Below are positions 23,380-27,594 of a DNA stretch of 39,369 bases, piece after piece (within the stretch, counting starts at the first letter, position 1; each line of letters starts with the position of its first letter). A program made the translations under genes and the position numbers. The stretch covers positions 984 to 40,352 of the forward strand of contig PBMO01000016.1 in NCBI GenBank assembly GCA_002722595.1, in the 5' to 3' direction. Under the pieces are notes generated by a model. The model was not told the DNA's origin, ran no database searches, and saw nothing but the letters and a program-made list of their open reading frames with translations. This DNA comes from Methanobacteriota archaeon (GTDB lineage Archaea; Thermoplasmatota; Poseidoniia; Poseidoniales; Thalassarchaeaceae).

Positions 23380-24537
23380 ATGGAGGGCCAACCATTTCGA
23401 GATTTACGCGAAATGGCTTGGTTTGAAAGACAAATAGATGCTAATATCAGTTGCATACACTTAGATGGAGAACGTTTGATTGTGGGCGATTGGGATGGTG
23501 GCATTCATTGTTGGGATCTCAATGGGGAAAACCTTTGGTCCACAAAAACGAGTAATAGAGTCGGTAATCTTAGTCTTTCCAAGAACATGGTTTACGCTGT
23601 TTGTGGACGTGATTTGACTGCTATTGAATTGTCTACAGGGGCAATACAATGGAATAGTGAGTTAGAGGGCAGTAGTGATTTAGTAGCCAGCACACAAGAT
23701 GGAAGCACAATTATTGCAACATCATCAATATTCGATTTAGAAATGAACGATTTTTTAGAGTCTACGATTTGGAGATTTAATCAGGATGGAGATTTGTTAT
23801 TCAAAGAATCCATCGACGAGCGCCCATGGTCTATTGAGATGCGTGGAGATGGAACAGCCTTCCTTGCATTGGGACGGCCTCGATGTGGCATGATTAGAAT
23901 AAATGAAGAAGGCGCACGTCATATGACATTACCAACAAATTCGCCAGCAACGTGTGGACGTGTTGGTCCAAAATATTCGATTATTGGCCATGCAGATGGC
24001 ACACTTACAGGACTAGACACAGGCCTAGTTTTGGATGATGATGATTTCACAAATCAGCCTGGGCCAATCGAAGCCATATCAAGTGCAGAGATTGGTTATA
24101 TGGTCGCATCATCCATTGAAGATAATTCAGGGATATCTGATTCTAATACAGTTCGAGGTATTGCGCGTTCTTATGATGCCAAAGGGAAATTAGTTTGGCA
24201 GATTGAAACCATAGGCGGTTGCATTATTGAACATGTAGAGCATGGGCCCGAGTTTGACAGCAGTGCAACAGCTTGGGTTGTTTCTTGGGACAAGATAGAC
24301 TCTACAATAATCGTCAATTCTGCAACACAAGATAGGCAATATGCTATTTTCAGCGAACCTTCACGTGTTAATGCAATACAGGCATACGAAGATTTCATTG
24401 CAATAGGGTTTGATAATGGTAGATTGATTCTGCTCCAGGGAGAACTTCTTCACAGGAGACTATCCCAAAAAAGCGAGGATCATTCTGACGAAAGGCGCAA
24501 CAAATTGGCTGAAAAATTGCGACGTCTCAGGTCCTAA
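23380..24537 (+). CDS. PQQ/WD40-like beta-propeller protein
   Basis: Repeated blades such as VGDWDGGIHCWDLNGENLW, IELSTGAIQW and YDAKGKLVW. Confidence 0.8.
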   Translation: MEGQPFRDLREMAWFERQIDANISCIHLDGERLIVGDWDGGIHCWDLNGENLWSTKTSNRVGNLSLSKNMVYAVCGRDLTAIELSTGAIQWNSELEGSSDLVASTQDGSTIIATSSIFDLEMNDFLESTIWRFNQDGDLLFKESIDERPWSIEMRGDGTAFLALGRPRCGMIRINEEGARHMTLPTNSPATCGRVGPKYSIIGHADGTLTGLDTGLVLDDDDFTNQPGPIEAISSAEIGYMVASSIEDNSGISDSNTVRGIARSYDAKGKLVWQIETIGGCIIEHVEHGPEFDSSATAWVVSWDKIDSTIIVNSATQDRQYAIFSEPSRVNAIQAYEDFIAIGFDNGRLILLQGELLHRRLSQKSEDHSDERRNKLAEKLRRLRS

Positions 24538-24620
24538 AAAATATCAATTCTGGAATCGCCCTTCCATCGGAAACAGGGGTCGGGTTGCCTGATTTCTGGT
24601 GGAAAGATGCATATTTCTCA

Positions 24621-24633
24621 CAAAGGTTTATGG
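24621..24633 (+). promoter_or_regulatory. Putative archaeal BRE/TATA promoter for the large ncRNA
   Basis: CAAAGGTTTATGG ~25-30 nt before the first helix; resembles GAAGGTTCATGG upstream of pyrE on the minus strand. Confidence 0.5.
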
Positions 24634-25314
24634 CCCTCCGCTTCACACGTGACTTTCGCCGCTCCCGAGGAGTGGTGTCGGAGTGCCCAGTACTACCGGC
24701 AGGCCCCAAGCCCACAAGGGACCCAATTCGGGAACGGCGGTGGGCCACTATTCCGAGTTAAATCGGAGTTGGTGGGGTGTACGGCCAGCAGTAATGTTGG
24801 ATTCGTAGACCTACAGGAGAGAAAGCGTACATTTCGGTGTACAATGGATACTTCTGTGAACAGTGCATTAGAGTTGGGCTCTAGTGCATACAGACACATT
24901 GTGTCTGAAATCACAGGAGATGTCTGCTCGTAAGAGCAGGGATCATTCGGAAGGAACTAGCAACATATACACCTTGCGAAAATCTCAATCAAAGGGAAAC
25001 AATGGAAGCCGAAAGGTGACCTCAGGGACCTAAAGAAAGAGGTAATTGCATAACAGTTGAGTTGTGAAAAGTCGGCTGGAAAAATCCCTCAACGCACAAT
25101 CCTGTGCTGGCATCTGAAGGCTCTGCCTGAAGACCGCCGGGGACGAGAAGGCTGCAGCTAGATCGTTCCAGGAAGGGTTGCAGCAATGCATACCTGACCA
25201 AAGGGGGGAACAGGGTGATAGCAATATCAAATCCTGCTCCTTGGTTGATTGAAATCGTAAGATGGATATTGCCAAGGAGAGACGTTTTCCGCAAGGAATC
25301 GTCTCTCTCAGGGA

Positions 25315-25561
25315 CGCCGGATTAGAGAAATCTGATTCGGGAACTGGTGGAGAGAAAGCAGTTTTCGGACTGTGGACAACACATCGGGAAGTGAGGTAGG
25401 TAACTACCTCAGGCGTCTGAGGATAGCTCGATGCGCTTGCGCATCGGGCTACCCGACCGAGATTTGGAAAACGTCTTCGGACGAAGGAAGGATTTCGGAT
25501 GCGGAGGCTGGCTGGCGGGGAAAGATCTACTCGATTCGAACCTGCCAGTCAGTACTCCCAA
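25315..25561 (+). repeat. Structured repeat domain, copy 1 (~247 nt)
   Basis: CGCCGGATTAGAGAAATCTG...CTCCCAA, near-identical to 25642-25886. Confidence 0.95.
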
Positions 25562-25641
25562 TTCCCACTCCAGGCTGATTTCTTCGCAAGAAGAGAGCAG
25601 TTAGGAGGTGCATGCAGACTGCAAGGAATGCGTGTGCCGGG

Positions 25642-25886
25642 CGCCGGATTAGAGAAATCTGATTCGGGAACTGGTGGAGAGAAAGCAGTTTTCGGACTGT
25701 GGACAACACATCGGGAAGTGAGGTAGGAAACTACCACAGGCGTCTGAGGTAAGGAAGATGTGCAAGCATTTTCTGCACCGGCCGAGATTTGGAAAACGTC
25801 TCCGGACGAAGGAAGGATTTCGGATGTGGAGGCTGGCTGGCGGGGAAAGATCTACTCGATTCGAACCCGCCAGCCAGCACTCCCAA
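25642..25886 (+). repeat. Structured repeat domain, copy 2 (~245 nt)
   Basis: As copy 1 except for a few substitutions and one swapped hairpin. Confidence 0.95.
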
Positions 25887-25995
25887 CTTCCTCTTGGAGG
25901 AATAGGGGCCATCCTAATCATTCACCTTTTCATGTTTGCGAAAGCAATCCACCCACAGAGGTCGTTTTCCTCGTGATTACACATATCGGAATATC

Positions 25996-27594
25996 TCATA
26001 GCCTGGGGCCAATCATATTCTCCGGTCTGACCCACTCATCGAATTGATCATTTGTCAGTAGGTTGAGTTGTAGCGCAGATTCTCTGAGCGTAATCGATTT
26101 CTCATGAGCATTTTTAGCTATTTTTGCAGCATTATCGTACCCAATATGGTTATTTAATGCAGTAACTAGCATGAGAGAATTTTCCAAATGTGATTGTATT
26201 GCATCGTGGTTTGCTTCAAGGCCAGTGATACATTTGTCTGTGAATGCATGGCATGTATCTGCAAGTAACCTTGTGCTGTGTAATAGGTTATGGATCATCA
26301 TCGGTTTGTAGACATTCAATTCGAAATTGCCTTGGCTGCCGCCGATTGAAATTGCAGTATTGTTGCCCATTACTTGACAGCAAACCATTGTCATCGCTTC
26401 AGCTTGGGTGGGGTTTACTTTCCCAGGCATTATACTCGAGCCCGGCTCGTTTGCAGGTAGTGAAAGTTCCCCAAAACCACACCTTGGTCCAGAACCCAGC
26501 CACCGGATGTCATTTGCAATTTTCATCAGGCTAGCTGCAAGTGTGTTTAGTGCACCACTTGCTGATACAATTGCGTCATGTGCAGCAAGTTGTGCAAATT
26601 TGTTTTCAGCACTGATGAACGGTAAACCCGTTTTTTCAGCAATATGGCCTGCTACCGTTTCAGCAAAATCAGGATGCGTATTCAATCCAGTGCCTACAGC
26701 GGTTCCTCCGAGTGCAAGTTCAAACAGGTCCTCGAGTGCAAACTCAATTCTTCGTATATCTGAATCAAGCATTGACACGTAGCCACTGAATTCTTGTCCT
26801 AGTGTCAGTGGAACTGCATCCATGAGATGGGTCCGACCAATCTTGACAACGCTGTCAAACTCTTTTCCCTTATTTGCAAGAGCATCCCTCATTTTACGAA
26901 TGGCGGGAATCAATTGGTGGTGAAATGATTCAGCACTTGAAATGTGCATTGCAGTAGGAAAAGTGTCGTTTGATGATTGTGCTTTATTTACATGGTCATT
27001 TGGGTGCACAGGTTCCTTCGAACCAAGGACACCACCTGCCAATTCAATTGCTCTATTTGCAATCACCTCATTTGCATTCATGTTGGTCTGTGTACCTGAT
27101 CCAGTTTGCCAAACTCTTAGGGGAAAGTGACCATCCAATGAGCCATCAATAACCTCTTCACACGCTGATATAATCAATTCACCAACAACAGGGTCGAGCA
27201 TGCTCAACTCACAATTCGTCATTGCAGCTGCCTGTTTTAAGATCCCAAATGCACGAATAACTCCTCGAGGCATTGTATCGTCACCTATGTCGAAATTAAT
27301 CAGCGAACGCGCAGTTTGGCAGCCATAGTATTTGTCAGCAGGGACTTCTAATTCACCCATGGTGTCAATTTCAATCCTTACATCACCTGGTTTTGATGAG
27401 GCCTTTCGCTCTTCAACTGCTGCTTGAAGTGGTGCAGCGTTTTGTCCATCGAGGGCTTCTTCAATCATCCTCGAAATAGTAGCACTTCTTCCTTCATTTC
27501 TTCCTCTTCCGACTCTCCGATCCAGTCTTTTTGCAATGTTCTCTGGTATGCTTATACTCATGATTCTGCGGTCGCCGGCTCTATGCTTCGCCAT
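25996..27594 (-). CDS. fumC: Class II fumarate hydratase with N-terminal ribbon-helix-helix extension
   Basis: [37 protein letters not shown] and [13 protein letters not shown]; ~70 extra N-terminal residues. Confidence 0.95.

Follow-up and report, generated by a model that had tools for sequence, protein, structure and literature searches.

What occupies the one large space in an otherwise densely coding archaeal sequence? The question is raised by the 39,369-nucleotide (nt) stretch of Thalassarchaeaceae DNA analysed here (contig PBMO01000016.1, positions 984 to 40,352; hereafter the window), in which open reading frames (ORFs) of at least 120 amino acids take up 93% of the sequence and the sole uncovered stretch of at least 250 nt runs from 24538 to 25995 (1,458 nt). 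Coordinates are positions in the window, and the + strand is the window strand read 5' to 3'. The G+C content of the gap is 0.51-0.52, against ~0.44 around it, and its GC skew is positive; an earlier sequence-only reading of this DNA had described it as the only large gap in a tightly packed window and as G-richer than its flanks, and both descriptions are borne out. That reading went on to propose a giant structured RNA of an unrecognised class. We are highly confident that the gap holds a real, expressed and structured non-coding RNA (ncRNA) of an uncatalogued family, and the overall explanation that we favour, with moderate assurance, is a stand-alone ncRNA gene with its own promoter, most likely encoding a trans-acting scaffold.

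Evidence for a conserved fold comes from the homologous gaps. A BLAST search of the gap, covering the window's own genome and 200 more from its family (201 in all), recovered near full-length matches at 67-76% identity in 22 of the 23 other genomes of the genus, together with partial matches in three further genera. Within the genus the non-coding gap is ~74% identical, which may be set beside 48-59% for the beta-propeller protein and ~80-87% for the fumarase encoded on either side of it. An alignment of 18 sequences (A2) gave an RNAalifold consensus structure of 372 pairs, in which standard pairs fill 93.0% of 5,974 cells and compensatory double changes occur in 145 pairs. Shuffled controls reached 80.2±5.2 such pairs (none of 500 attained 145), a comparison that overstates the significance because the aligned genomes are related; the controls in which the partner was slid by one to three columns keep that relatedness, are hence the fairer ones, and gave 46-62 compensatory pairs, with double changes in 62-102 cells as against 428 in the true alignment. 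The observed compensatory pairs thus exceed the slid controls two- to three-fold. Because the alifold structure itself uses the alignment, the count was repeated for the window's single-sequence fold placed on A2, where 138 of 422 pairs were compensatory, compared with 89.3±5.6 after shuffling (0/500) and 51-61 after sliding. A folded RNA, the sequence-only reading had held, should show covariation among homologues and no conserved reading frame, and this is how the locus behaves. Besides the strong covariation (145/372 pairs), the longest ORFs of the 18 sequences do not coincide in position, frame or strand, lengths divisible by three make up just 51 of 376 indel runs, and the fraction of variable sites is flat across the codon phases (0.539, 0.559 and 0.535). 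No reading frame is conserved, and the gap locus is non-coding.

The two strands differ markedly in their predicted folds. The minimum free energy of 24657-25930 is -563.2 kcal/mol on the + strand and -432.6 kcal/mol on the - strand, and the z-scores of 24657-25311, from 20 dinucleotide shuffles per strand, are -8.39 and -4.39, respectively. G-U wobbles occupy 656 cells (11%) of the 5,974 in the 18-sequence alignment, as against 119 A-C or C-A cells (2%), and G exceeds C on the + strand in 20 of 20 homologous gaps. Since contigs of RNA runs cannot show strand, it is from the direction of the promoter described below, the G-U versus A-C counts and the asymmetry of the folds that we infer the RNA to lie on the + strand. 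The sequence-only reading had built its case on a series of hairpins, with loops mostly of the GNRA, UNCG or CUUG type and mismatches mostly G-U on the + strand. All the hairpins that it listed are located at or near the places given for them, its remark on wobble pairs agrees with the counts above, and 16 of the 28 consensus loops, as read in the window sequence, are GNRA (11) or UNCG (5). Folding recovered all of these hairpins except one, TTCTTC-GCAA-GAAGAG (~25574-25590), which sits in a linker missing from 7 of the 18 homologues. The proposed end points fit as well, the start (24657) lying 1 nt from the start predicted here (~24658) and the end (25930) being the last T of a T-run.

Expression, likewise expected by the sequence-only reading, is supported by RNA runs. 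The sequence stretch occurs in 20 RNA runs from 14 studies, four of them runs of only 10-13 million letters, and 18 of the 20 carry at least half of the sampled 31-mers. Contigs from four RNA runs of four studies, matching at 95% identity or more, together cover 24669-25844. Their starts in the four studies (24669, 24673, 24676 and 24691) are no more than a weak hint at the 5' end. Over the wider interval 23380-27594, in the same four runs and at the same identity, the beta-propeller gene, the fumarase gene and 25845-25995 are uncovered, which proves nothing, as the runs were chosen by the RNA stretch and contigs drop rare sequence. This pattern of coverage is therefore not taken as evidence that the RNA alone is transcribed.

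Upstream of the RNA lies a box resembling the B recognition element (BRE) and TATA sequence of archaeal promoters, and the proposed gene is laid out as follows.

24622-24631, + strand: BRE/TATA-like promoter box AAAGGTTTAT, recognised by conservation and fixed spacing
24658 (±3, predicted)-25930, + strand: structured non-coding RNA of ~1,270 nt, delineated by fold energies, covariation and RNA-run contigs

The box is invariant save for one base in all 18 aligned homologues, and a GAAAGRTTTAT-like box stands at the same place in the window and in each of 20 distant homologues drawn from the sister family and from other genera. From its TTTAT to the first conserved base of the RNA the distance is 23 nt in 21 of 21 sequences, across a spacer that is itself unconserved. 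Its match to the BRE/TATA consensus and this spacing suggest that the box is an archaeal promoter, and the known geometry of archaeal BRE/TATA elements would place the start near 24658. As AAAGGTTTAT occurs once in the window, which is no more than chance, the promoter call rests on conservation and spacing; inspection by eye revealed no such box upstream of the RNase P RNA gene of the same genome. A scan for bacterial-type promoters and terminators, which is inapplicable to archaea, returned no promoter and, on the minus strand, two sites resembling terminators, a number in line with chance. With respect to the ends of the transcript, 7 of 60 contigs from metagenome collections start at 24665/24666 and two more within 3 nt of there; among the seven, contig L079 (1,278 nt) stops directly before the T-run, matching 25927-25930, and contig L095 continues into fumarase. 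As these records may derive from RNA or from DNA, we take the starts as a lead for the 5' end only; a loss of ~9 nt at the 5' end would fit ordinary RNA-seq libraries.

Is such an RNA already known under another name? Rfam 15 (4,227 models, probably with GOLLD, ROOL, OLE, HEARO, raiA and IMES RNAs, group I and group II introns and ribozymes among them) was applied at gathering thresholds to the whole window and in a permissive mode (E up to 10) at the locus. The former gave no matches in the whole window; the latter, over 24300-26200, gave chance-level matches only, the best being to a 22-nt viral pseudoknot model (E 0.19). Eight homologous loci yielded a single match, also at chance level (E 0.36). 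With no match in the window or at these eight loci, the description of the class as unrecognised withstands comparison with Rfam. Archaeal RNase P RNA and signal recognition particle (SRP) RNA are, like this RNA, abundant structured stand-alone RNAs, and both were considered and rejected: the genome's copy of the former (RF00373) lies elsewhere (G000:C4:26971-27267, 222 bits), the only match to the latter (RF01857) is a contig-end fragment (G000:C44:17407-17510, 46.4 bits), and neither model matches at the RNA locus. A group II intron was set aside too, as there is no Rfam intron match and the RNA lies between two complete genes, has no conserved ORF and is a single syntenic copy. The RNA is thus unrelated to the families catalogued so far; as a general kind, it has bacterial precedents. 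Being longer than 500 nt, stand-alone, lineage-wide, non-coding and built of covarying helices, the RNA belongs among the large ornate orphan ncRNAs (OLE/GOLLD/ROOL-like), which constitute a kind and not a homologous family.

A search of the literature, with subscription journals outside its scope, found no large ncRNA described for Poseidoniales, Marine Group II (MGII) or Thalassarchaeaceae save Tan1; PMC8049014 and PMC12379486 proved to have no bearing on the matter. According to the available passages of its description, Tan1 (Thalassoarchaea ncRNA 1) is a 229-nt "unknown" RNA of Candidatus Thalassoarchaea that ranked as the fifth most abundant in RNA-Seq of a marine metatranscriptome, has a complex predicted secondary structure and has five homologues at 75-79% identity (Hou et al., 2016; PMC5069720). 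As far as can be judged from that published description, on which the comparison is based, Tan1 shares with the present RNA its Marine Group IIb (MGIIb) lineage, the lack of an Rfam family, a complex predicted fold and a similar identity among homologues, and differs from it in length, 229 nt versus ~1,270 nt. We give serious thought to the possibility, which we judge somewhat improbable, that the two are one and the same and that Tan1 was under-measured at 229 nt through mapping to diverged reference fosmids. The shared lineage, high abundance and complex fold speak for it, as do the 75-79% identity, which resembles the ~74% found here, and the fact that the passages of PMC5069720 seen (12 of 25 places) name no other abundant unknown RNA of the lineage. 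Against it stand the more than five-fold difference in length, the absence of any Rfam 15 match at the locus, and the absence of the size, architecture, promoter and distribution reported here from the available text of PMC5069720. Tan1 may represent a piece of this RNA, perhaps a stretch conserved well enough for reads to map to it on diverged reference fosmids, and it may equally be a different RNA. The novelty asserted by the sequence-only reading accordingly holds in that no Rfam family matches and is qualified in that part of the RNA may already be known as Tan1. Even if Tan1 is a fragment, the full length, domain layout, promoter, duplication and order-wide distribution would be new relative to the available parts of that account.

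What does the ~1.27-kb RNA look like? A conserved 5' domain and a conserved 3'-terminal hairpin bracket a variable, modular core of GNRA- and UUCG-capped hairpins. In the list that follows, R1 is a covariance model of the 5' domain and R2 a wider model built from distant matches.

24655-24830, + strand: 5' domain, two terminal hairpins and then a three-helix junction (covariance models R1 and R2)
24813-25105, + strand: domain II, closed by helix 24813-24818/25100-25105 (helices 12-27, with many compensatory pairs)
25109-25200, + strand: domain III, three short hairpins, in the homologues mostly with GCAA caps (helices 28-35, loop census)
25312-25569, + strand: repeat unit A of the 3' domain, ~250 nt, comprising a multi-branch element, two hairpins and the long terminal hairpin 25501-25560 (direct repeat; helices 45-58 covary)
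25639-25894, + strand: repeat unit B of the 3' domain (direct repeat of unit A)
25826-25885, + strand: 3'-terminal long hairpin, conserved base GYGGAG...CUCCCA, by which the family can be recognised order-wide as by a second signature (covariation across genera)
25905-25930, + strand: 3' tail, with GGGGCC at 25905-25910, a conserved pyrimidine-rich stretch and the T-run 25927-25930, a putative terminator (conserved tail)

The hairpin pair at the 5' end occupies 24658-24700 and the three-helix junction extends to 24812; this 5' domain includes the block in which sequence conservation is strongest (24696-24724), and it served as the anchor of the homology searches. The helix closing domain II (helix 11) is paired in 100% of cells, with two of its six pairs varying, on one side only, and the domain holds an invariant internal hairpin block with a GNRA loop at 25000-25030. 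The 3' domain is enclosed by helix 25201-25207/25562-25568. In 22 sequences from nine genera and two unassigned contigs, the 3' long hairpin is paired in 92.3% of cells and 11 of its 21 pairs are compensatory, compared with 6.8±1.4 after shuffling (0/500) and 1-8 after sliding; with its conserved base, it can be traced from the window to the sister family. The GGGGCC of the tail can pair with 24702-24707 (helix 4), so closing the whole molecule. Another alifold helix (helix 1), which paired the promoter box with the 3' tail, was rejected, a promoter not being expected in the transcript. Overall, the conserved blocks fall in helices and junctions and not in long single strands.

The length of the RNA owes something to a duplication. 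Units A and B form a direct tandem repeat and are 92-93% identical, and among the 18 aligned sequences 11 have two units and 7 have one. In a tree of the units, 10 of the 11 two-copy genomes have their upstream copies in one group and their downstream copies in another; the window's two units instead group together (support 0.997), and they are also the most alike of all pairs (identity 0.891, versus 0.676-0.854 in the others). From the tree and these identities, we suggest that the duplication is old and that gene conversion followed in the lineage of the window. Of the two single-unit genomes of the genus, one groups with the upstream copies or the downstream copies and the other with the opposite type, and loss by recombination between units would fit this pattern. 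The long hairpin of the downstream copy (25826-25885, helix 71) is near-invariant, 18 of its 19 pairs never varying among the 11 two-copy genomes, unlike that of the upstream copy, which covaries. The giant size (~1.27 kb) given in the sequence-only reading needs the qualification that it stems partly from a genus-level tandem duplication, the RNA-holding gaps of other genera measuring ~720-1,220 nt. At loci L002-L022, the number of 3' units is one or two within a single genus.

A 3' domain that forms a self-contained module, present once or twice, is also what one would expect if the 1.27-kb transcript were a precursor that is cut into smaller stable RNAs, with products of ~200-300 nt (e.g. 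the repeat unit or the 5' domain) as the functional species. The 229-nt length of abundant Tan1 from the same lineage, as given in the available part of PMC5069720, and the weak support for helix 4 as a closing helix of the whole molecule would agree with such processing. We nevertheless consider it unlikely, for RNA-run contigs bridge the domain boundaries in unbroken pieces (24691-25400 in X2 and 24669-25344 in X4), the 1,278-nt collection contig spans from near the predicted 5' end to the T-run, and long-range helices enclose domains II and IV.

How widely does the RNA occur, and in what company? An exact-motif scan of one genome per species returned 24 records, of which 23 are titled Thalassarchaeaceae, Poseidoniales, MGII, Euryarchaeota or Methanobacteriota, in agreement with the marine archaeon surmised from the letters; viral contigs gave no match. 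The odd record (L045, PBPU01000093.1) is a 6.4-kb contig titled Acidimicrobiaceae bacterium that carries an archaeal beta-propeller gene followed by the RNA, and it is probably a mis-binned Thalassarchaeaceae contig. For the wider surveys, f1 denotes Thalassarchaeaceae, f3 the sister family Poseidoniaceae, f4 and f5 two other families of the class, and g-numbers genera. Within the family, R1 matches in 99 of 151 genomes and 11 of 13 genera, with a single match in 97 of the 99 (the window's genome included, in which the RNA locus is single). Across the order, R1 matches in 52/74 genomes of f1, 0/2 of f2 and 4/74 of f3, all four in g17. Across the class, the wider model R2 matches in 38/40 genomes of f1 and 11/65 of f3, and in none of the 45 genomes of the two other families (f4 0/43, f5 0/2); within f3 its matches fall in g17 (9/10) and g20 (2/2), i.e. 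in two of the seven Poseidoniaceae genera sampled. The RNA family is thus specific to Marine Group II archaea (Poseidoniales), near-universal in Thalassarchaeaceae and patchy in Poseidoniaceae, and the RNA is single-copy and vertically inherited at one syntenic site. One genome with 3% contamination, G058, has two R1 matches (G058:C34:72763-72829 and G058:C42:2939-3053), each beside its own beta-propeller gene, which could mean that a second locus truly exists or that the bin mixes two strains.

The syntenic site is defined by two protein-coding genes; no tRNA was found in the window (ARAGORN).

23380-24537, + strand: beta-propeller gene, PQQ/WD40-like, 385 amino acids, predicted cytoplasmic, with a basic C-terminal tail (Pfam PQQ_2, E 3.4e-10)
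25996-27594, - strand: class II fumarase gene, convergent with the RNA (Pfam Lyase_1, E 1.1e-111; FumaraseC_C, E 1.5e-24)

In all distant loci inspected (16/16 and 4/4), the RNA adjoins the beta-propeller gene and has fumarase on its other side, save where a short locus stops before reaching fumarase; the beta-propeller gene is immediately upstream at all loci where the RNA was found. That the RNA always sits between the same two genes, with its T-run only 65 nt from the fumarase stop codon, might suggest a cis element, either a 3' untranslated region (UTR) of the beta-propeller mRNA or an antisense or terminator-overlap regulator of fumarase. This appears most improbable to us: a conserved promoter box separates the beta-propeller stop codon from the RNA, the RNA overlaps neither coding region, known UTR elements come nowhere near 0.7-1.3 kb of structure and 145 compensatory pairs, and in genus g16 the two genes are convergent ~23 nt apart in the absence of the RNA, from which it follows that neither gene needs it. 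The g16 locus L162 (G208:C4:41000-46000), where these genes are such neighbours, has the appearance either of a clean loss of the RNA gene or of a site that never received it. Another candidate, a catalytic or mobile RNA (for instance a group II-like intron that lacks an ORF, or another self-splicing or self-cleaving element), would share with large ribozymes the size, the many GNRA loops and the multi-domain layout. It can be dismissed with near certainty, as the Rfam intron and ribozyme models give no match up to an E of 10, the RNA is flanked by complete genes and not by exons, no ORF for a reverse transcriptase or maturase accompanies it, and it is single-copy and syntenic across the order with no matches in viral contigs.

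We return, then, to a stand-alone gene and to what its product may do. In the model that we propose, a single-copy gene at ~24658-25930 on the + strand would specify a stand-alone, abundantly transcribed and highly structured ncRNA, which would be transcribed from its own BRE/TATA promoter on the + strand as one ~1.27-kb RNA and would act in trans as a compactly folded scaffold. By analogy with OLE, GOLLD and ROOL, such a scaffold might form the core of a ribonucleoprotein (RNP), or else of an assembly among RNAs in which tetraloops provide the contacts. The scaffold interpretation is suggested by the location of conservation in helices and junctions, by loops dominated by tetraloops and by the lack of a same-strand downstream gene to regulate; in known large RNAs, such tetraloops make tertiary contacts. 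We advance the scaffold or RNP mechanism tentatively, as a suggestion that falls short of even odds, and regard a cis-regulator or a base-pairing antisense RNA as less likely. It is a bolder and rather doubtful proposition that the RNA is the first large ornate RNA machine of Archaea, a tetraloop-folded three-dimensional particle, possibly a homo-oligomeric cage or a new ribozyme, made at near-housekeeping levels by archaea that rank among the most abundant in surface seawater and without counterpart among the catalogued RNA families.

To our knowledge, large structured RNAs of unknown function are rare, and each one that has been solved proved to be a ribozyme, an RNP core or an RNA-only cage; we know of none of this size class, ribosomal RNA apart, described for Archaea. 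The present RNA resembles OLE in being lineage-restricted, chromosomal and expressed and in having conserved helices and an adjoining conserved gene. It differs in lacking sequence or structure homology (Rfam being negative), in being archaeal, in its length of 0.7-1.3 kb versus ~600 nt, and in its neighbour, which for OLE is a membrane protein and here a soluble beta-propeller that is also present without the RNA. OLE (ornate, large, extremophilic) itself is described as a chromosomal, lineage-restricted, highly expressed and intricately folded orphan RNA of Bacillota (PMC9723947; PMC12054373). GOLLD and ROOL, according to a recent preprint, are ornate RNAs of bacteria and phages that form RNA-only cages, and thereby provide a precedent for RNA-only quaternary structure (bioRxiv 10.1101/2024.12.08.627333). 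This RNA is like them very large, multi-domain and tetraloop-rich. The two are bacterial and have "parent phages", according to that preprint (bioRxiv 10.1101/2024.12.08.627333); by contrast, the RNA described here is archaeal, single-copy and vertically inherited at one syntenic site, with no viral-contig matches and no Rfam match.

It should be noted that several observations, in addition to the relatedness that inflates the shuffled controls, weigh against the interpretation given above. The contigs of RNA runs carry no information on strand, ends or level, so that the strand and the 5' and 3' ends given here are predictions. Helix 4 is paired in 93.1% of cells with one-sided changes only, so that folding of the whole 1.27 kb as a single unit is no more than a possibility. 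R2 finds no match in g15 (0/21), g16 (0/17), g18 (0/10), g19 (0/4) or g21 (0/1), many of these genomes being incomplete, and an RNA that is not found in most Poseidoniaceae genera would be dispensable in close relatives of its hosts. Finally, the beta-propeller gene persists without an adjacent RNA, the gap downstream of it measuring ~23 nt in g16, ~340 nt in g15 and ~90 nt in g18, which weakens the idea of an obligate partnership; synteny alone makes no partner.

Marine Group II archaea are uncultured and form a major part of the surface plankton of the ocean. An RNA that is found in many ocean metatranscriptomes and conserved across this group could be the first large orphan RNA of the ornate kind to come from archaea, and studies of marine metatranscriptomes are likely to list its transcripts as "unassigned". 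With a covariance model, these transcripts could be identified and could serve to indicate MGIIb activity. Moreover, dozens of diverged, covarying homologues, variants of ~0.7-1.3 kb and a domain duplication offer natural material for structural work.

The beta-propeller gene is of some interest in itself. It is present order-wide (f1 64/66, f3 83/89), with weak matches only in f4, no N-terminal signal sequence is visible by eye in the translation, and its matches in the PDB are to generic propellers only, namely the designed Cake and Tako proteins, RACK1 and BamB. We do not claim the protein as a partner of the RNA, given its order-wide presence, its occurrence without the RNA and these generic matches. 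As a core Poseidoniales gene product, it has 21 invariant residues, including R166, P167 and G170, in an alignment of 21 sequences (A6).

Between the beta-propeller stop codon and the RNA promoter lie two inverted repeats.

24562-24572, no strand assigned: inverted repeat TTCC-N3-GGAA, conserved in a 19-sequence alignment
24593-24605, no strand assigned: inverted repeat TTTC-N4-GGAAA, conserved within the upstream 60 nt in all 20 order-wide homologues compared

They may be a regulator binding site or a terminator of the upstream gene, and the promoter-proximal repeat holds its distance to the TATA-like box in all 20 order-wide homologues.

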